In this document: piece after piece, positions 6,640 to 56,963 of the stretch
Layout: each line of letters starts with the position of its first letter
How positions within the stretch are numbered: position 1 is the stretch's first letter
Source: Candidatus Parcubacteria bacterium
GTDB lineage: Bacteria; Patescibacteriota; Patescibacteriia; Magasanikbacterales; UBA922
NCBI GenBank assembly: GCA_002869205.1
Contig: PKTJ01000066.1
Span: 187 to 64,186, forward strand
Reading direction: 5' to 3'
Length of the DNA stretch: 64,000 nt
The notes under the pieces: generated by a model
The model's database searches: none
Told to the model about the DNA's origin: nothing
Seen by the model: only the letters and a program-made list of their open reading frames with translations
Translations under genes and position numbers: made by a program

Positions 6640-7509
6640 TTATACTAGTCCACGAAGTTTTTTAATACGATCTTCTGCTGGTGGATGTGTAGAAAAGAAT
6701 TTTGAAAAGCCCTTTCCTTTGAGAGGGTTTGAAATGAAGAGGTGGGCTGTCGCAGTGCTTGCGGTAGGGAGAGCTGAAGATTTGGAAATTTTTTCAAGCG
6801 CTCGCGCAAGACCTTCTGGATATCTTGTTAGAAGTGCGCCAGATGCATCTGCAAGGTATTCGCGTTTTCGTGAGATAGCGAGTTTGATGAGTTCGGCGAT
6901 AATAGGGGAGAGTATGAGTAAAATCAGTCCGATAATCGCAAAATATCCACTTCCTTTACTATCACTTTTTCCACCACCATACCATCGTGCACGGAAAAAC
7001 CAATTACTAATCAGAGATATTGTTCCGACAAGGACGACTACAATGGTCATGAGTCTAATGTCGAAATTTTTGATATGAGATATTTCATGTGCGATCACTC
7101 CTTCGAGTTCTTCGTTTTCGAGTGCTTTTACAATTCCTGTGGTGACAGCTACTGATGCGTGCTCTGGATCTCTACCTGTGGCAAATGCATTCATGGCAGG
7201 GGAGTCTATAATATATACTTTTGGGGTCGGGATTCCGGCGGTAATAGCCATGTTTTCTACCATGCGATATACATATGGATCAGCTTCCTTCGTTGTTTCT
7301 CTGGCGCCGGTAGAGCGTAGTGCGATTTTGTCTCCCTTGTAGTAGCTTATGAGTGTCATGAGAACAGAAATAACCATAGCACCCACGACCATAGCGTATC
7401 CACCGCCATAATATACATCGAGTGCCCAGCCGATTGCGAGAATGATTATCATAAACACAAAGATGAGAATCTTTGTCTTGCGTTTGTTTGAGTCTATTTG
7501 AGAATACAT
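6640..7509 (-). CDS. htpX: protease HtpX (M48 zinc metalloprotease)
   Basis: HEISH zinc motif, N-terminal TM helices, typical HtpX length; adjacent LemA as in many genomes. Confidence 0.9.
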   Translation of the reverse strand: MYSQIDSNKRKTKILIFVFMIIILAIGWALDVYYGGGYAMVVGAMVISVLMTLISYYKGDKIALRSTGARETTKEADPYVYRMVENMAITAGIPTPKVYIIDSPAMNAFATGRDPEHASVAVTTGIVKALENEELEGVIAHEISHIKNFDIRLMTIVVVLVGTISLISNWFFRARWYGGGKSDSKGSGYFAIIGLILLILSPIIAELIKLAISRKREYLADASGALLTRYPEGLARALEKISKSSALPTASTATAHLFISNPLKGKGFSKFFSTHPPAEDRIKKLRGLV

Positions 7510-7597
7510 ATTATTTAGTATTTAGTTCGTAGCCAATAGCCAATAGAAAATTTACAAAAGGTATTCCTATTGGTTGTAAATTATTGGTTGTGAACTT

Positions 7598-8164
7598 TTA
7601 GAGTTTTACTTCGATATTCTCACGTTCAGTTGCATCTTCAATTTCGAAGAATACAAATTTCTCAAATCGTTTAAACATTCCTGCAATAACATTGTTTGGG
7701 AATGATTCAATTTTGATATTGAAATCACGTACATTGCCGTTGTAAAATCTACGTGCTGCCATGATTTTGTTTTCAGTATCAGAAAGTTCGTCCATGAGCT
7801 GCATAACATTTTGATTTGCTTTCAAATCTGGATATGCTTCCATAGCTACTTTCAAATCACGCATCATTGAGTTGATTTGTGTTTCTGATTTTGCAAGACC
7901 TTCTGTGTCACCAGCTTCTTGTGCTTTCATAGCATCAGCACGAGATTTGGTAATGTTTTCGAGTAGTTCACGCTCGTGTTTCATGTATCCTTTCACACTA
8001 TTGACCAAATTTGGAATGAGGTCGTGACGACGCTTGAGTTGTACATCAATATCACTCCAAGATTCTTTCGTGCGATTTTGGAGTTTGATAAGTACGTTGT
8101 AGACACCAATAATCCAAAAGAGGACAACGGCGAGGATAATAAGGATCGCGAATAATACTGGCAT
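7598..8164 (-). CDS. lemA: LemA family membrane protein
   Basis: N-terminal TM helix followed by the conserved LemA core (KESWSDIDVQLKRRHDLIPNLV...RRFYNG). Confidence 0.85.
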   Translation of the reverse strand: MPVLFAILIILAVVLFWIIGVYNVLIKLQNRTKESWSDIDVQLKRRHDLIPNLVNSVKGYMKHERELLENITKSRADAMKAQEAGDTEGLAKSETQINSMMRDLKVAMEAYPDLKANQNVMQLMDELSDTENKIMAARRFYNGNVRDFNIKIESFPNNVIAGMFKRFEKFVFFEIEDATERENIEVKL

Positions 8165-19922: not shown

Positions 19923-19958
19923 TCCCTCTGGCAAAAACCAGAGGGATTTATTTTTCTT
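19923..19958 (+). terminator. rho-independent terminator after dnaE
   Basis: TCCCTCTGG-caaaaa-CCAGAGGGA followed by a T-run. Confidence 0.7.
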
Positions 19959-20034
19959 TGGAGGCGCCGTCAAGAAACGACGCCTGTCGGGGAGGGGAAC
20001 GCCCCGCCGCCCGAAGGCGGCGGGAGTAGAGCGT

Positions 20035-21078
20035 TCAGCGAGTTGTGCGGATCGAGGTGTCCCAGTGGTGGTGGTAGATGATGTGACCGAGGTCTGTGAG
20101 CCACGAGACGACACGGATCTTGCCCGACTTGACGAAGGGGTTCAAGAACTGTCGATTCACGAGCGGGACCGTGTCTGCGACGTAGAGGCGATCGAGCGGC
20201 GAGTGATCGAGCTGCAGGTTCTCCACCGCGTCACCACACAGAATGGCGTGCGTAACGATTGCCCAGAATTCGTGGATCTCGGCACGTTCTCGGACGGTGT
20301 TAGCTGTCCTCAGATTCGTGCTGACTGTCGCCGCTTCATCGTCCACAGACAGAACCAGTGCACCTTCGAGTTCATCGACATCTCGATAGATGTCTTTGAT
20401 CTCGACGTCGCGGCTGTTTCCACGACGTTTGTCACCAAACGTCGTGAAGATGTCACAGTCGAGCTCGTCGGCCACGTTCGTGACAGCTTCCTCATAGCGC
20501 TTCTTGGCGCCGTTGTCTGGGTAGTGTACGACGATCTTGTCGTGAGTTTGCAGCGCTTCTTCGAGCGCCTGCTTGAATACGCGCTTGAACATACTCACTT
20601 CGGTGATGAGACCAGGGTCACCGGCCATCACAACCTGCGAAGCGTGGAGATCGACGGAGATGATTCTGTCGAGTCTGCCTTGCGCGGCCGTCTTCATCAG
20701 CGAGACGATGAGGGGTGGAAGAGCGAACTCGTCGTCAGCTTCGTCTCTGTCGGATCGCGAGAGCGGGAAGTAGGCGGTGATGACGGTGATTCGGGCGGCT
20801 CTTCTGCCTGCCACGTGGTTGAGCAAGAAGAATAGGTTCACGAGCATGTCGGGGGTGCCAGGGCCACTGGTCAAGATCACGCAGTCGTGACCGCCGATGT
20901 GCTTCTTCTTCAGCTTGATGAAGGGTTCTTTGCTGCTGCGCCGACCGAAGATCGGAGACGCGATGTCGACAGGCGTCTCTTTCCTTTCGATCTGCTCTTT
21001 GAGAAGGGTGGCGATGTCTTCGAATCCGGGCATGGGAACGAGCGTGAGCGCGCCGTGCTGGCTGTGTCTGTCTTTCAT
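20035..21078 (-). CDS. divergent ribose-phosphate pyrophosphokinase (PRPP synthetase) family protein, second copy
   Basis: Aligns along its whole length to Prs (HDCVILTSG..RITVITAYFPLSRSDRD..DLHASQ..KRRGNSRDVE..SVDDEAATVST). Signature loops are altered: GYARQDRK becomes PLSRSDRD and DTGGT becomes EAATVST. GAGGG ribosome-binding site 8 nt before the ATG. Confidence 0.7.
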   Translation of the reverse strand: MKDRHSQHGALTLVPMPGFEDIATLLKEQIERKETPVDIASPIFGRRSSKEPFIKLKKKHIGGHDCVILTSGPGTPDMLVNLFFLLNHVAGRRAARITVITAYFPLSRSDRDEADDEFALPPLIVSLMKTAAQGRLDRIISVDLHASQVVMAGDPGLITEVSMFKRVFKQALEEALQTHDKIVVHYPDNGAKKRYEEAVTNVADELDCDIFTTFGDKRRGNSRDVEIKDIYRDVDELEGALVLSVDDEAATVSTNLRTANTVRERAEIHEFWAIVTHAILCGDAVENLQLDHSPLDRLYVADTVPLVNRQFLNPFVKSGKIRVVSWLTDLGHIIYHHHWDTSIRTTR

Positions 21079-21158
21079 AACGAAACCCTCGTAATTAGAT
21101 CAAGAAAACGACCTCCCCGGCCGTCTCCTCGATGTGTGAAATGAGCAAACATGTCACC

Positions 21159-21188
21159 ATAATAATTGTTTTGAGTTGTCATGTCAAC
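21159..21188 (-). promoter_or_regulatory. sigma70-like promoter for the prs-like gene (TTGACA-17-TATTAT)
   Basis: Minus-strand -35 at 21183-21188 and -10 at 21159-21164, between the udk terminator and the prs-like ribosome-binding site. Confidence 0.55.
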
Positions 21189-21202
21189 CATAAAAAAAAC
21201 GA

Positions 21203-21233
21203 ACACCCCGAGGCCGAAGCCACCGGGGTTTTA
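21203..21233 (-). terminator. rho-independent terminator downstream of udk
   Basis: Minus strand AAAACCCCGGTGGC-ttcg-GCCTCGGGGTGTT followed by T8. Confidence 0.65.
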
Positions 21234-21239
21234 GTTCGC

Positions 21240-21863
21240 TCAGGATGGGTGGAATCCGTTGAGCATCTGTTCGAGTCCTGCCTGAATGAACAGGCGTGCG
21301 ATCTCGTTGTTCCCGCCGTGTGGCACGATCAGGTTCGCGTGTCTGCGGGTCGGGTGACAGAATTCGTCGTGCATGGGTGCGACAGTGCCTTCCCATTGCT
21401 CGAGGATACCTTCGAGTTTGCGTCCTCGTTCCAGAACGTCTCGTTTGATACGACGCGCGAGACGTGTGTCTCCGGGCGTGTCGACGTAGATCTTGATCTT
21501 GGCGAGGCTTACCAATTCAGGTACAGCGAGCGCGAGTATTCCTTCGGCGATGATGAACGTTTTTGGGTCCACCTGGACACGCTCAGGTTCACGCGAATGC
21601 GTGTTGTAGTCCCAGCGCGGGGTCTGGACCGATACACCATCGACGAGCTCGCGAACGTGTGACACCATTAGGATGTTGTCGAAAGACCCTGGGTGGTCGA
21701 AGTTGCCGTTCTGGACGTAGGGAGACTCGGGGTCGTAATAGAAGTCGTGGCAGATTCGACAGCACTTGTCATCGCCGAGCATTCGGATGATTTCACGCGC
21801 GAGCGTTGTCTTACCAGAACCAGTGCCACCAGCGACGATGATCACGACAGGCGTGTTTTCCAT
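21240..21863 (-). CDS. udk: uridine/cytidine kinase
   Basis: P-loop GGTGSGKTT, NFDHPGSFD, FIIAEGIL, YVDTPGDTRLARRIKRDVLERGR, ANLIVPHGGNN; near colinear with E. coli Udk. Start placed at MENTPVV, which has GGAGG 9 nt upstream. Confidence 0.85.
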   Translation of the reverse strand: MENTPVVIIVAGGTGSGKTTLAREIIRMLGDDKCCRICHDFYYDPESPYVQNGNFDHPGSFDNILMVSHVRELVDGVSVQTPRWDYNTHSREPERVQVDPKTFIIAEGILALAVPELVSLAKIKIYVDTPGDTRLARRIKRDVLERGRKLEGILEQWEGTVAPMHDEFCHPTRRHANLIVPHGGNNEIARLFIQAGLEQMLNGFHPS

Positions 21864-21959
21864 CTTGAGCTTCCTCCAATTTGCAACAAAGCAGGCCATC
21901 GGCCTGCTCCTTTGTTGTATTTCAGAAATATTGTAACGCTACTTTTGTAGTTTGTCAAA

Positions 21960-22225: not shown

Positions 22226-22317
22226 GAGTTTATAAAGTTTAAAAGTTTAAAAAGTATACAAACTAACTATATGTAAAATACTTTACAAACTTTATAACTT
22301 TAGTAACTTTCGAACTC
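22226..22317. repeat. AAAGTT-motif inverted-repeat element (MITE-like), overlaps the 3' end of prs
   Basis: Left arm GAGTTTATAAAGTTTAAAAGTTTAAAAAG and right arm CTTTACAAACTTTATAACTTTAGTAACTTTCGAACTC are imperfect inverted copies; related elements at 53854-53931 and 54097-54183. Confidence 0.5.
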
Positions 22318-23250
22318 ATTAATAGATTTTACACTTTCATTTTTATGGATTTTTGAAATAATTTCAGCAAATCGTTTGCTCACTGACACTATTTCCAAAT
22401 CTCGTAGGTTGTGATGGTCACTTGGAATTGTGTCAGTAGTAATGAATTTGGTGATAGGGGAGTTGTTTAGTTTTTCACTTGCGCCTACACCCAAATTCGC
22501 GTGTATGAAACATGCATCTACACTCACTGCTCCTGCAGAATTGAGGAGAAATTCAGCATCTTCAATCAATGTTCCACCACTAAGTGTTTCGTCATCAATG
22601 ATAAGACATTTTTTATTTTGTACATCACCAATAACACCTTTGATTTTTACTTTTTCATCATTACCAATTCTACGTTTATCCATCATAGCAACAGGTAAGT
22701 CGAGACTGTCGGCATACGATTCCATCATTTTTGCTGCGCCGCTGTCTCCAGCTACGAGAACATAATTAGATAAATCCCAATTCTGTTTTAGGTGTTTGAT
22801 AATATCTGGTGCCGCAATGAGATGATCACACGGTACGCCGAAGAAGCCATGGAGTTGTGCCGAGTGCATCTCCATGATGAGGACACGGTTTGCACCAGCT
22901 GTCTGTAGCATGTCGGCTATGAGTTTGGCAGTAATACAAATTCGTGGTTGATCTTTTTTGTCTGATCGTGCATATGAAAAGTAGGGGAGAACTGCGGTAA
23001 TTCTTTTTGCAGAAGCATCTCTGAGTGTTCTGATATACATGAGAAGTTCCATGATATGGATGTGTACCGGTGTTGTGTGAGTTTGTATAACAAACACATC
23101 ATCTCCTCGCACAGCCTCATCAACAGTCACAAATTTATCTCCATTACTAAATGTTATAGAAGATGTTTGTGTCTCTTCTATATCCAAGTGTTCACAGATT
23201 TTCTTTACAAATCCTTTGTGGCTGCTACCACCAATAATTTTGAGGGACAT
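22300..23250 (-). CDS. prs: ribose-phosphate pyrophosphokinase (host copy)
   Basis: Canonical motifs DDVFVIQTHT, RITAVLPYFSYARSDKK, MEMHSAQ, IIDDETLSGGTL; AT-rich codon usage. Confidence 0.9.
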   Translation of the reverse strand: MSLKIIGGSSHKGFVKKICEHLDIEETQTSSITFSNGDKFVTVDEAVRGDDVFVIQTHTTPVHIHIMELLMYIRTLRDASAKRITAVLPYFSYARSDKKDQPRICITAKLIADMLQTAGANRVLIMEMHSAQLHGFFGVPCDHLIAAPDIIKHLKQNWDLSNYVLVAGDSGAAKMMESYADSLDLPVAMMDKRRIGNDEKVKIKGVIGDVQNKKCLIIDDETLSGGTLIEDAEFLLNSAGAVSVDACFIHANLGVGASEKLNNSPITKFITTDTIPSDHHNLRDLEIVSVSKRFAEIISKIHKNESVKSINEFESY

Positions 23251-31830: not shown

Positions 31831-31894
31831 CGGATTTCCGGATAATCCAGATTTACAGATATCTGTCGATCAGGATTATCCGGAGATAAGGATC
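31831..31894. repeat. palindromic intergenic repeat family P, copy 2 (between rplJ and rplL)
   Basis: CGGATTTCCGGATAATCCAGATTTACAGATATCTGTCGATCAGGATTATCCGGAGATAAGGATC. Confidence 0.65.
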
Positions 31895-52013: not shown

Positions 52014-52100
52014 AGATCCTGATATTCGGATACCCTTAGGGCATTTCTCTCCGGGAATAATCCAGATTTACAGATATCACATCCGTAGATCTGGATTATC
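52014..52100. repeat. palindromic intergenic repeat family P, copy 5 (with an ACCCTTAGGGCATTTCTCTCCGGG insert)
   Basis: ATTCGGATACCC...AATCCAGATTTACAGATATC...ATCTGGATTATCCGGAAATCAG. Confidence 0.65.
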
Positions 52101-52126
52101 CGGAAATCAGTATATAAAATAGTTTT

Positions 52127-52867
52127 ATGAAATATATATTTGGTAATTGGAAAATGTATTTAAACACACAACAGAGTATTGATCTTGCTCGTGAATTTGC
52201 ACAACTCGTCCAAGATGGTGATGGGGTTGAATACGCTGTATTTCCAAACACACTTGCATTTTATGACGTAGCCGCAGAACTAAAGAACAGTCCAGTAGCA
52301 ACAGGAGCGCAAAATGTTGGTTGGACACCGCAAGGTGCTTATACAGGTTCTACGTCTGCATTTATGTTTAGTGATGCTGGTGCCAAATATGCTTTGGTAG
52401 GGCACTCAGAACGACGCCATGTATTTGGAGAGACAAATGAAGATGTGAGAAAGAGGCTTGAGGCAAGTATTGATGTGGGGCTTACACCTGTGTTATGTAT
52501 TGGTGAGACAAAAGAGGATCGAGATGCTGATAAGACTGAATATAGGCTCAAAAAACAGCTTTTGAAGGCATTTGAGAACCTTTCGTTGAATGGCAATCGT
52601 GTGATCGTCGCTTATGAGCCTGTATGGGCAATTGGTACAGGTGATGCTTGTGTGCCAGAAGAGGCACAACGTGTAATTAATCTTATAAAACAGGAGATCA
52701 AACAGTATGTAGATACAGATGTTCCTGTGCTGTATGGAGGTAGCGTTTCTGCTGACAATGTGGTATCATATGTTTCGCTTCCAGATATCGACGGTGTGTT
52801 GGTTGGTGGAGCATCTAGCAAGGCTGAATCATTTATGACATTAATTAATAATGCGATTTCTGCATAG
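52127..52867 (+). CDS. tpiA: triosephosphate isomerase
   Basis: NWKM, VGHSERR, AYEPVWAIGTG, GGSV motifs. Confidence 0.95.
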   Translation: MKYIFGNWKMYLNTQQSIDLAREFAQLVQDGDGVEYAVFPNTLAFYDVAAELKNSPVATGAQNVGWTPQGAYTGSTSAFMFSDAGAKYALVGHSERRHVFGETNEDVRKRLEASIDVGLTPVLCIGETKEDRDADKTEYRLKKQLLKAFENLSLNGNRVIVAYEPVWAIGTGDACVPEEAQRVINLIKQEIKQYVDTDVPVLYGGSVSADNVVSYVSLPDIDGVLVGGASSKAESFMTLINNAISA

Positions 52868-54190: not shown

Positions 54191-55627
54191 ATGACAAAAC
54201 AAACAAAAATTGTATGTACCATAGGTCCAGCATGTGAAACCGTGGAGACGCTCGAAAAAATGGTGAAAGCGGGGATGAATGTTGCACGATTGAATTTTTC
54301 TCATGGTTCATACGAGCACCATAAAAAACTTATAGCCAATATTCGTGAAGTAGAAAAACGTACAGGCGAACCTGTCGCAATTGTGCAGGATTTGCAAGGA
54401 CCAAAAATTCGTATTGGGGATTTGGGTGAAAAGGGTATCAAGCTTATACCGGGTGAAGATATATATTTTTCTACTGACATGACCGATAGGCAATCTATTC
54501 CTATTCAGTATGAACACTTGCATGAATATATAAAACGCGGCGAGAAGATGTTGCTCGACGATGGAAAAATGGAAGTAAAAATTTTGGATGTAGAAGGAAA
54601 GAAAATAAGAACAAAAATTATCGTAGGTGGTCTGTTGCTCGCGCACAAGGGAATCAATATTCCCGAATCCGATTTGTCTCAAATGCAAGTGCTTACATCA
54701 AAAGACAAAAGTGATGTGCGCTTTGGTGTGGAAAATGGTGTGGATATGATTGCGTTGTCCTTTGTCATGAAGCCAGATGATATTTTGGATCTACGTTTTC
54801 ATGTAAAACAAGTGGAATCAGAATTAGATATTGTAGGCAATCAGCCAATTCGACTTATTGCTAAAATAGAAAAACCAGAAGCAGTAGAACGTATGGAGGA
54901 GATTGTTCAGGTGGTAGATGGAATCATGGTGGCTCGTGGAGATCTAGGACTTGAGATCCCAGCCGAAGAAGTTCCTCTTGTGCAGAAAAAACTAATTGAC
55001 ACAGCGATGGAAGCTGGAAAGCCAGTGATTGTTGCTACGCAGATGCTTGATTCTATGCAGCATAATCCACGTCCAACGCGTGCTGAGGTGTCTGATGTAT
55101 CAAATGCCGTTATTGATCATACTGATGCAGTCATGCTTTCCAATGAGACGGCAGCAGGGGAATATCCTGTTGAGACTGTCGCAACTATGGCACGAATCAT
55201 TGCAGAGACTGAAAAATCTCATTATGATGATTTGCCATTTCGAGAACCAAAGACAAAGATTCACAAGATCGACGATACTATTAGTGGATTGTCTCGAGTC
55301 ATGGCAGAAAAGATTGGTGCAAAACTTATTTTGGCTGCTTCCATCTCTGGTGAAACAGGCCGACTCATTTCTCGTTATCGTCCCGAGTTTCCTATTGTTG
55401 TTGCGACAAGTACAGATCGTGTGCAACGTCAATTGAATTTATCATGGGGTGTACGACCGTTTATCCTCATGCCGTGTAATTCTATTGAAGAGCTTGTGGA
55501 TCGTGCAGTGATACATCTAAAAAAAGAAGATTTGGTCAAAATTAATGACAAAATTATTGTGGTAGCAGGGGAGCCAGTCGGACATGCAGGACATGTGAAT
55601 TTATTGGAAGTTAGAGAAGTAAAGTAG
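54191..55627 (+). CDS. pyk: pyruvate kinase
   Basis: KIVCTIGPA, MNVARLNFSHG, MVARGDLG motifs; 478 aa. Confidence 0.95.
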   Translation: MTKQTKIVCTIGPACETVETLEKMVKAGMNVARLNFSHGSYEHHKKLIANIREVEKRTGEPVAIVQDLQGPKIRIGDLGEKGIKLIPGEDIYFSTDMTDRQSIPIQYEHLHEYIKRGEKMLLDDGKMEVKILDVEGKKIRTKIIVGGLLLAHKGINIPESDLSQMQVLTSKDKSDVRFGVENGVDMIALSFVMKPDDILDLRFHVKQVESELDIVGNQPIRLIAKIEKPEAVERMEEIVQVVDGIMVARGDLGLEIPAEEVPLVQKKLIDTAMEAGKPVIVATQMLDSMQHNPRPTRAEVSDVSNAVIDHTDAVMLSNETAAGEYPVETVATMARIIAETEKSHYDDLPFREPKTKIHKIDDTISGLSRVMAEKIGAKLILAASISGETGRLISRYRPEFPIVVATSTDRVQRQLNLSWGVRPFILMPCNSIEELVDRAVIHLKKEDLVKINDKIIVVAGEPVGHAGHVNLLEVREVK

Positions 55628-55711
55628 TGCGTAGTAGGGGGTGTGCCTGCCCGTCCGAAGCCTCGGCGTAGGAGGGTGAATATGCTTGAGGTGAGAGAGG
55701 TGGGGTAAATA
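55628..55711 (+). pseudogene. GC-rich relic of a second pyruvate kinase C-terminus (..VVGGVPARPKPRRRRVNMLEVREVG*) immediately after the pyk stop
   Basis: In-frame translation matches the host pyk tail VVAGEPVGHAGHVNLLEVREVK, with G/C at the synonymous positions. Confidence 0.5.
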
Positions 55712-55727
55712 ATATTTTAAACAAAAA

Positions 55728-55756
55728 AACATCGCCTGTATGGCGGTGTTTTTAAT
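55728..55756 (+). terminator. rho-independent terminator
   Basis: CATCGCC-tgta-TGGCGGTG followed by a T-run. Confidence 0.6.
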
Positions 55757-55864
55757 TATACTAACTTCGCTCTGTTTGGACTCATTATCTTCGTCTTTTA
55801 ACAAAGCTAATGAATCGGGCGGGAGCGAAGGTAGCATGGTTGTGAGTAGCAGTCGCGCCGTCCG

Positions 55865-56575
55865 CTAGTTCACGGTGTGGTCGTCGCGCCACCTGGCACA
55901 GATGTCGTCCGGGTACTTCCACGTACCGTCGTCTCGGGTGTCGAGACAGTGGATCATCGGATCTTCCTGTGAGGTAGAGATGTTGTAGGATGTGCCATCT
56001 GGTGTGATGATGATGACCGTCGAGGTGATCGGCTTGTCACCTTCATGTTTCCAGTCAGTCGGTCCACGATACGGGCGAGGGGAGATGTCGAGGTGGGTGT
56101 TTTCATCGCAGTTCTTACCCTCGATGTAGAAGCAGCGACCGTATTCCGGGATGGGATAGATGCCGTGAAACTCTATGTGACAGACCGCGTGCGTGATGCA
56201 CTCGTGAGGAAGTTCCTCACCGAGACAGTCACTCACGGTGGCGCACTCGTAGTTGTCGTAGTCTGGCGCGGGGAGCTCCGACGCTTCGATCGAATCGACG
56301 TAGATGAACGAGTCGACTTCGATTTCACCCACGAGAACCCACTCGTAGATGGATCCGTCCGGCGTCCAGAAGGGGCCGTCGAGCCAGATGACTTCATCAC
56401 GCTTGGGTTGTGCCGCCATCGTGGCGGCCTTGTCCAGCGTCTTCATCTTATCCGTCGAGTCCTGCTGCTCGGCTTCCAGGGACGCGCCGAATCCGATCGC
56501 GATCGACGCGAACAGGACGAGGGTCATCATAGGGACGTTGACGATGGTTCTGATGCTGGCCGCTCGGTTGCTCAT
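55865..56575 (-). CDS. secreted/membrane-anchored cysteine-rich hypothetical protein (~236 aa)
   Basis: Signal/TM segment MMTLVLFASIAIGFGASLEA and 10 Cys. Start placed at MSNRAAS, which has AGGAG 7 nt upstream. The plus-strand ORFs 56045-56710 and 56349-56807 are Arg-rich antisense artefacts. Confidence 0.6.
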   Translation of the reverse strand: MSNRAASIRTIVNVPMMTLVLFASIAIGFGASLEAEQQDSTDKMKTLDKAATMAAQPKRDEVIWLDGPFWTPDGSIYEWVLVGEIEVDSFIYVDSIEASELPAPDYDNYECATVSDCLGEELPHECITHAVCHIEFHGIYPIPEYGRCFYIEGKNCDENTHLDISPRPYRGPTDWKHEGDKPITSTVIIITPDGTSYNISTSQEDPMIHCLDTRDDGTWKYPDDICARWRDDHTVN

Positions 56576-56626
56576 TTTCGAGCTCCTCATTGTGTCCGTG
56601 GGCTTTTTCGAGCCCTGTTGCGATTC

Positions 56627-56818
56627 TTATCTTCCGAGACTGCAGGTGCCACAGTGCTTGCCGCAGTATCCTCCGCCCTGGCAAATGCCACGAGGTTCTT
56701 TGGGAGGTAGTGGCGGAAGGTCCTTGAACCTTTCTTCCATCGGAAGCAGCGGAGCTTTCTCCTGGTCTCCTTCCGGAACTGCGATTTCTTCTGGGTCTGT
56801 GGTATGACGAGAGGTCAT
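56627..56818 (-). CDS. small Cys-rich protein (63 aa from MTSRHTT; C-terminal CQGGGYCGKHCGTCSLGR)
   Basis: AGAGGAG 6 nt before the internal ATG; four Cys in a C-x5-C-x3-C-x2-C arrangement; sits 50 bp upstream of the secreted protein gene. Confidence 0.5.
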   Translation of the reverse strand: MTSRHTTDPEEIAVPEGDQEKAPLLPMEERFKDLPPLPPKEPRGICQGGGYCGKHCGTCSLGR

Positions 56819-56963
56819 CGGTGACTCCTCTATGCTGGAGAGTACGTTAATCATTTTTTACCAAAAAAACGGTATTTTGTCAATGTTATGTAAGAATAGT
56901 GGGACGTTTTGATTCCCGATTATTTTATGGTATACTTATGACCACTATTTCTAACCTTATTTT

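Follow-up and report, generated by a model that had tools for sequence, protein, structure and literature searches.

A second pyruvate kinase gene end downstream of pyk in a Magasanikbacteria genome: a candidate scar of recombination with DNA of a related lineage

In this Candidatus Parcubacteria bacterium, the pyruvate kinase gene pyk is followed by a second copy of its own last codons. This copy (the relic) is a genuine, short pseudogene fragment that is specific to the species. We regard the 81-bp structure that carries it, with moderate confidence, as a non-functional scar left when the genome recombined with related foreign DNA, so that two alleles of the pyk tail were juxtaposed. The features at this end of the gene, numbered in the window (the whole stretch of DNA that was analysed, 64,000 nucleotides), are as follows:

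54191..55627, plus strand: the pyruvate kinase gene pyk, 478 aa, ending in a TAG stop (Pfam PK, E 1e-115; PK_C, E 3.5e-30)
55595..55627, plus strand: the working pyk tail, VNLLEVREVK*, comprising the final 10 codons and the stop, with A/T-ending codons
55628..55675, plus strand: a 48-nt GC-rich (69%) filler between the tail copies, with the translation 'CVVGGVPARPKPRRRR' and containing AGGAGG
55676..55708, plus strand: the relic, VNMLEVREVG* (TAA stop), a second pyk-tail copy in frame with pyk and 81 nt 3' of the working copy

The pyk product shares 93.5–94% amino acid identity with that of the closest relative (loci L003 and L083), consistent with the adjoining genes (90–95%), and its C-terminus reads ...IVVAGEPVGHAGHVNLLEVREVK-TAG. 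Directly past this stop, the in-frame translation is CVVGGVPARPKPRRRRVNMLEVREVG* (55628..55708), and the relic codons at its end are GTG AAT ATG CTT GAG GTG AGA GAG GTG GGG TAA. The original prediction had placed a duplicate of the pyk C-terminus at 55628–55711. Pairwise alignment at the protein and DNA level bears this out for the final 10 codons plus stop (55676–55708), where 22 of the 33 nt of the tail core are identical, but not for the first 16 codons (55628–55675), where the ungapped match of 12/48 nt is that of random sequence; the correct end is 55708 rather than 55711. Against the pyk tail, this 48-nt segment gives a protein p of ~0.07 and a DNA score that was equalled by 392 of 2000 shuffles. 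Since the first 16 codons carry no significant pyk similarity, the homologous relic is 33 nt long. The 48-nt segment showed no similarity to islands A, C or D or to the L003 island, viral contigs contain no identical copy of it, and its RNA fold is unremarkable (z 0.01). That the segment might be an inverted tail was considered and set aside, as its reverse complement aligns with the window's own tail at p ~0.01 and matches no relative, which fails multiple testing.

TAG is the stop of 11 of the 42 long ORFs in the window. We rejected stop readthrough or a recoded extension of pyk, since TAG is a normal stop here and the extension is absent from relatives. Within pyk there was no significant mosaic breakpoint (best 3' segment, p = 0.11). 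Third positions across the clade give 0.45 in the tail and 0.45 gene-wide, so that the tail is without extra constraint, and no nucleotide-level constraint on it was found. Only three members make up the 90% identity cluster of pyk, with no intermediate relatives among them.

At the protein level, none of 20000 shuffled versions of the relic attained its match score, which at 39 is modestly higher than the 35 of a background of other genes' flanks in this window. Because this score only modestly exceeds the flank background, the case for the relic rests on its DNA matches to relatives. The relic matches the pyk tails of L004 and L085 at 26/27 nt (E 7e-5; p only ~0.01 before correction for the number of relatives tried) and that of L022 at 35/41 nt (E 6e-6; 24/27 in the core), with which it also shares the GGG TAA ending. 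It matches the L003 tail at 23/27 nt and the window's own working tail at 19/27. Moreover, an alignment of 168 nt that starts at the relic runs colinearly through the pyk tail, terminator and hairpin of L003 (E 7e-18), and a 17-nt identical run is common to the relic and L003. The relatives of pyk are Candidatus Magasanikbacteria/Parcubacteria MAGs, and the tail VN(L/M)LEVREV is a signature of the Magasanikbacteria clade (Firmicutes, for example, end TNLMKVHVIG). A six-frame search of 162 related loci recovered the tail motif only at pyk tails and at the relic.

We found no other pyk fragment in the spacer or the rest of the window, no third copy of the tail on the other side of the island or anywhere else in the window, and nothing above chance in a repeat search of 55540–55900 against the window (blastn-short). 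Neither at other genes nor at island borders did similar duplicates of gene heads or tails rise above background. The relic has no unusual RNA fold (z 0.01) and no Rfam match, only the two tRNAs being found, and it is presumably without function. An AGGAGG lies 6 nt before the relic ATG (55669–55684), giving a perfect Shine-Dalgarno sequence and an 8-codon mini-ORF, MLEVREVG*. This is the sole AGGAGG-N5-9-ATG on both strands of the 64-kb window, and it is probably a coincidence of the junction.

The relic structure is identical in three assemblies, including ENA ERZ794998 and JGI 3300007102, both of which have their own SNPs elsewhere, and it is absent from ~60 related pyk loci, including L003/L083. 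L003 aligns to the window through the pyk stop (..55627) and resumes at 55676, with both alignments covering the same 33 L003 nt. The net difference between the window and L003 at the pyk end is one 81-bp insertion, made up of the 33-nt tail copy and the 48 nt. In most relatives ppsA follows pyk after 100–600 AT-rich nt, and in L003/L083 the pyk–ppsA spacer is ~1.25 kb and partly GC-rich. The JGI contig of the same organism (L002, JGI Ga0102541_1104843) ends inside the GC-rich gene of this spacer, at the equivalent of window 56166, possibly owing to a problem of coverage or strain variation in the island.

The working tail and the relic differ at 11/33 positions, 7 of which are third positions, mostly A/T to G. 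In the nine conserved codons, 16/18 first and second positions agree, and 3/9 third positions; by our own estimate, the former has a probability of the order of 1e-5 under neutral saturation. Because the differences are almost only synonymous, both copies evolved inside working pyk genes, for nearly all of the time since they diverged; as the third positions of the tail carry no extra constraint, a non-coding copy would have decayed at all positions. Since the copies are different alleles, each from a working pyk, one tail would have come from another Magasanikbacterium, and the comparison suggests that the two are alleles from different lineages, recently brought together. Recombination at pyk had been proposed from the start, and this part of the proposal holds: a second, allelic pyk 3' end is present, and the pattern of differences points to DNA of another lineage. 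A pyk paralog elsewhere in the genome may alternatively have been the source of the second tail.

As to how recombination could have produced the structure, one end of the incoming DNA would have recombined through homology while the other was attached by an illegitimate joint (homology-facilitated illegitimate recombination, HFIR), so that the tail of one allele would be displaced, not replaced. For HFIR the incoming sequence should be allelic and foreign to the resident copy, and the two tails stand in this relation (11/33 differ; synonymous sites saturated). At the possible joint, GTGAAT is common to both copies, and GTAG recurs at 55624–55637. In the likelier polarity, the gene would now be completed by an incoming pyk 3' end that brought along 48 bp of donor sequence from downstream of it, and the original tail, now the relic, would have been pushed out of use with its original terminator still attached. 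In the alternative, the 48 nt and the relic would have been inserted after the stop. We weakly favour the working tail as the import and the relic as the native tail, because the 48 bp are not pyk-like, as expected of donor flank and not of a fragment begun inside pyk. Of the third positions, the relic shares 6/9 with L003 and the working tail 3/9 (20/27 nt overall), against expectations of 0.61 for an ortholog and 0.45 for another lineage, which gives a likelihood ratio of ~7 for this polarity (a hand calculation on 9 codons only). Over the full 33 nt, counted by eye, both copies are equally far from L003, with 8 mismatches each. It had also been suggested that a foreign fragment began inside a donor pyk, for which the non-pyk character of the 48 nt past the stop would be unexpected.

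Some 3 kb upstream, tpiA (52127–52867) has 66% amino acid identity to L003, where its flanking genes have 90–95%, and 62% to L004. Because tpiA diverges from L003 amid conserved neighbours, allele replacement appears to occur in this region, and the pattern suggests a replacement of the tpiA allele in one lineage. A ~60-nt palindromic repeat (TCCGGATAATCCAGATTTACAGATATC...GATCTGGATTATCCGGA) is present in at least two copies in the window (52050–52112 and 31836–31888) and also, in inverted orientation, in the M16–tpiA spacer of L003 (3814–3883); this repeat could represent a shared terminator or an element of the REP/MITE type.

An event of the kind favoured here, with two pyk tail alleles brought together by recombination, is an ordinary one, and the scar opens no long-standing question. 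It would be direct sequence evidence of an uncultured CPR bacterium recombining with related-lineage DNA at a housekeeping locus. The tpiA anomaly adds to the evidence for recombination, and together they bear modestly on gene exchange in reduced, host-dependent bacteria.

The relic is followed by an AT-rich stretch, a terminator, a hairpin, a GC-rich segment and ppsA, in that order:

55725..55753, no strand assigned: a bidirectional intrinsic terminator with an A-tract, a 7-bp GC stem and a T-tract, serving pyk and the convergent island operon, by RNA folds
55758..55838, no strand assigned: a conserved ~80-nt hairpin (AACTTCGCTC...GAGCGAAG) separating the terminator from the GC-rich cassette, with a fold z of -4.2 to -6.9
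55865..56590, minus strand: a GC-rich orphan gene, the island proper, 241 aa, with an N-terminal membrane segment and GC3 0.77
56627..56854, minus strand: a small Cys-rich ORF, 75 aa, the first gene of the minus-strand island operon, with an L003 homologue at 46% amino acid identity
56964..60098, plus strand: ppsA (PEP synthase / PPDK family)

The pyk terminator was missed by a consensus terminator scan and found by folding, and L003 has an equivalent terminator hairpin at the same place with a different stem sequence. The ~80-nt hairpin has an outer stem AACTTCGCTC/GAGCGAAG, an internal loop and an inner stem, lies just 3' of the minus-strand GC-rich genes, and differs from its L003 counterpart by two compensatory pair changes. 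Covariance-model matches to it occur only in this organism (one copy in the window) and in L003/L083 (two copies); 60 other related loci and the rest of the window gave none. Across the terminator and hairpin, 79% of ungapped columns are identical to L003, and four other spacers give 78–90%. Because its divergence from L003 matches that of other spacers, this stretch looks vertically inherited. L003 has its terminator at the corresponding position, together with the hairpin and the small Cys-rich ORF, and the middle of its spacer differs from that of the window.

The first alternative we weighed is that the structure is the scar of a site-specific integrative element that targeted the pyk 3' end and supplied a surrogate tail, its body having later been deleted to leave 48 bp. 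The arrangement is e14-like, with a working gene followed by a second 3' end that differs at synonymous sites, and the 48 bp are GC-rich like the foreign islands of the genome. However, the copies flank only these 48 bp and no element, and the segment has no counterpart in the islands or in viral contigs. Among the ORFs scanned with Pfam between 55.8 and 64 kb, none showed an integrase or recombinase domain, and none of ~60 related loci has an element at the pyk tail. There is also no recognisable crossover core, since no stretch longer than 6 nt (GTGAAT) is identical in the two copies. We consider this origin unlikely.

If the final 81 bp of pyk had been duplicated in tandem in situ and the copies had then diverged, this would account for the spacing of exactly 81 nt (27 codons), for the shared reading frame and for a faint VVGGVP versus VVAGEP likeness (p ~0.07). 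Against this, the 48-nt halves are no more alike than random sequence, as the 12/48 match shows, so that similarity does not extend over the whole unit, and the duplication is absent from L003. A young event would yield near-identical copies; an old one, with synonymous sites saturated and non-synonymous sites kept at 16/18, needs long coding constraint on a copy that is non-coding. Duplication in place is accordingly quite improbable.

The spacer itself invites a broader interpretation. L003 carries two tandem units of terminator, hairpin and GC-rich gene, with the hairpins at 7489–7572 and 7945–8023, and the window has one such unit. The gene between the Cys-rich ORF and the hairpin is completely different in the window and L003, and the Cys-rich ORF of both has a C-terminal Cx5-6Cx3-4Cx2C motif. 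The orphan genes of the spacer (in L003, 7568–8561) have GC3 0.77 against 0.3 in host genes, with host-like AT-rich promoters (TTGACAAAA...TAAAAA). The hairpin at 55758–55838, considered as a candidate integron attC, has an outer stem, internal loop and inner stem and an attC-like placement 3' of a cassette-like gene, with two copies in L003 and one in the window; by eye, its match to the attC boxes RYYYAAC / GTTRRRY is partial only, and no intI was seen. The pyk–ppsA spacer of this Magasanikbacteria lineage could be a hotspot of cassette exchange, with the duplicated pyk tail as the footprint of one exchange, a proposal that we hold very unlikely. The same low credence goes to its corollary, that GC-rich orphan minus-strand units would each be framed by a host-like promoter and by the hairpin and terminator. 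Exchange of such units might be directed by the hairpin, in an attC-like way, or anchored by homology, and would involve no recognised integrase.

That the relic is the left end of the GC-rich Island C, a piece of donor pyk co-transferred with it, is what the original prediction proposed. The GC3 of the relic is 0.57 against 0.31 in the working tail, and a gene of GC3 0.77 with alien codon usage begins 157 nt past the relic stop. Relic and island are nevertheless neither contiguous nor alike in composition. The AT-rich terminator (55725–55753) and hairpin (55758–55838) stand between them; both are present in L003, diverged to the extent normal for spacers, and L003 carries a GC-rich insert at this site too, yet no relic. 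The right part of the island (the small ORF) is moreover older than the split between the window and L003. Relic codons are ~90 times better explained by host usage than by the C-ending usage of the island genes (log10-likelihood -4.98 versus -6.94): island genes favour GTC, AAC and CTC, and the relic uses AAT, CTT, AGA and G-ending codons. The relic had further been described as GC-recoded, with G/C in place of A/T at synonymous positions. The 7 of 11 differences at third positions agree with the description of where the copies differ, but at the differing sites L003, L004 and L022 (the three closest relatives, all AT-rich) mostly carry the states of the relic, so that it is the working tail that is A/T-shifted and not the relic that is GC-recoded.

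Nor does the relic give a handle on an island donor, as had been suggested. The relic matches the pyk tails of AT-rich relatives, nearly equalling them at the DNA level, and AT-rich Magasanikbacteria are where both the tail motif and its exact codons are at home. For the island genes no close relatives exist: the 241-aa orphan matched only itself in 5.8 billion proteins and had one weak match in 1.84 billion representatives (exhaustive HMMER), and no island protein was found in viral contigs. Our searches found no donor genome for either the tail or the island. From these sequence comparisons, the relic is not from a GC-rich donor and is not the island edge, and the co-transfer reading is highly improbable. 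As a caution, a GC-richer copy of a gene end beside a GC-rich island need not be part of the island; here the relatives reverse the apparent direction of 'recoding'.

Chance resemblance or an assembly artefact is the least credible explanation and scarcely to be entertained, for although the 9-residue protein match alone has a BLAST E of 0.33 and other genes' flanks score 35 against 39, the DNA matches are specific to relatives' pyk tails and colinear with downstream sequence, no shuffle in 20000 reaches the score, the structure is identical in three assemblies with different SNPs, and an assembler could not have joined the copies through shared sequence because they share no k-mer longer than 6.

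Two further observations concern the surroundings. Residues ~830–1044 of ppsA form a C-terminal extension of ~215 residues with a predicted membrane segment and a Cys-rich domain, unusual for a PEP synthase; the tblastn match of ppsA to L003 reaches residue 980, which is the end of the fetched L003 locus. A second GC-rich island (19955–21900) follows the dnaE terminator and holds, on the minus strand, a uridine kinase and a divergent PRPP-synthetase-like gene. This island adjoins the AT-rich host prs (22300–23250), with no duplicated gene end at its borders, and its uridine kinase (island A) has a best non-self match at 59%, followed by matches at ~45–50% that include Acidobacteriota and Thermoanaerobaculia.

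Several known systems place a second gene end beside a first. Diversity-generating retroelements, which work with template and variable repeat pairs, are common in CPR genomes, and they resemble the present case in having a repeat of a gene 3' end just downstream of the gene. Here, however, no more than 33 nt are repeated, and the gene concerned encodes a housekeeping enzyme. We rejected a repeat pair of this type, as 2/11 mismatches fall at A's of the relic and 6/11 at A's of the working tail (all A to G), with the others at T or G; no reverse transcriptase was found among the selected ORFs scanned.

The rhs and cdiA toxin loci, which encode polymorphic toxins with immunity genes under diversifying selection, carry displaced 'orphan' C-terminal modules. 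There, as proposed here, an incoming 3' end recombines in a conserved coding stretch and the old 3' end is pushed downstream, keeping a piece of that stretch. By contrast, pyk is a housekeeping gene, and the peptide encoded by its two tails is essentially the same.

In E. coli, e14 and phage 21 attach at icd, such that icd extends into the prophage and an icdC pseudogene lies at the far end (Hill et al. 1989; PMC13626634). As at pyk, the working gene ends in one 3' allele, and a second, synonymously different 3' fragment is a pseudogene. The icd locus, however, has a 15-kb prophage, an integrase and a shared crossover core, whereas the pyk locus has 48 bp, a 6-nt identical run and no integrase found.

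The closest parallel to the recombination favoured here is with HFIR, which the account in PMC6382021 presents as an established route to such joints and traces to natural transformation in Acinetobacter, S. pneumoniae and P. stutzeri (de Vries & Wackernagel 2002, Prudhomme 2002, cited in PMC6382021). The present case differs in having no donor, defined microhomology joint or experimental system, and in coming from an uncultured CPR bacterium. The likeness is in the product: a homologous anchor combined with an illegitimate joint can leave a resident duplicate beside an incoming allele and a short donor flank.
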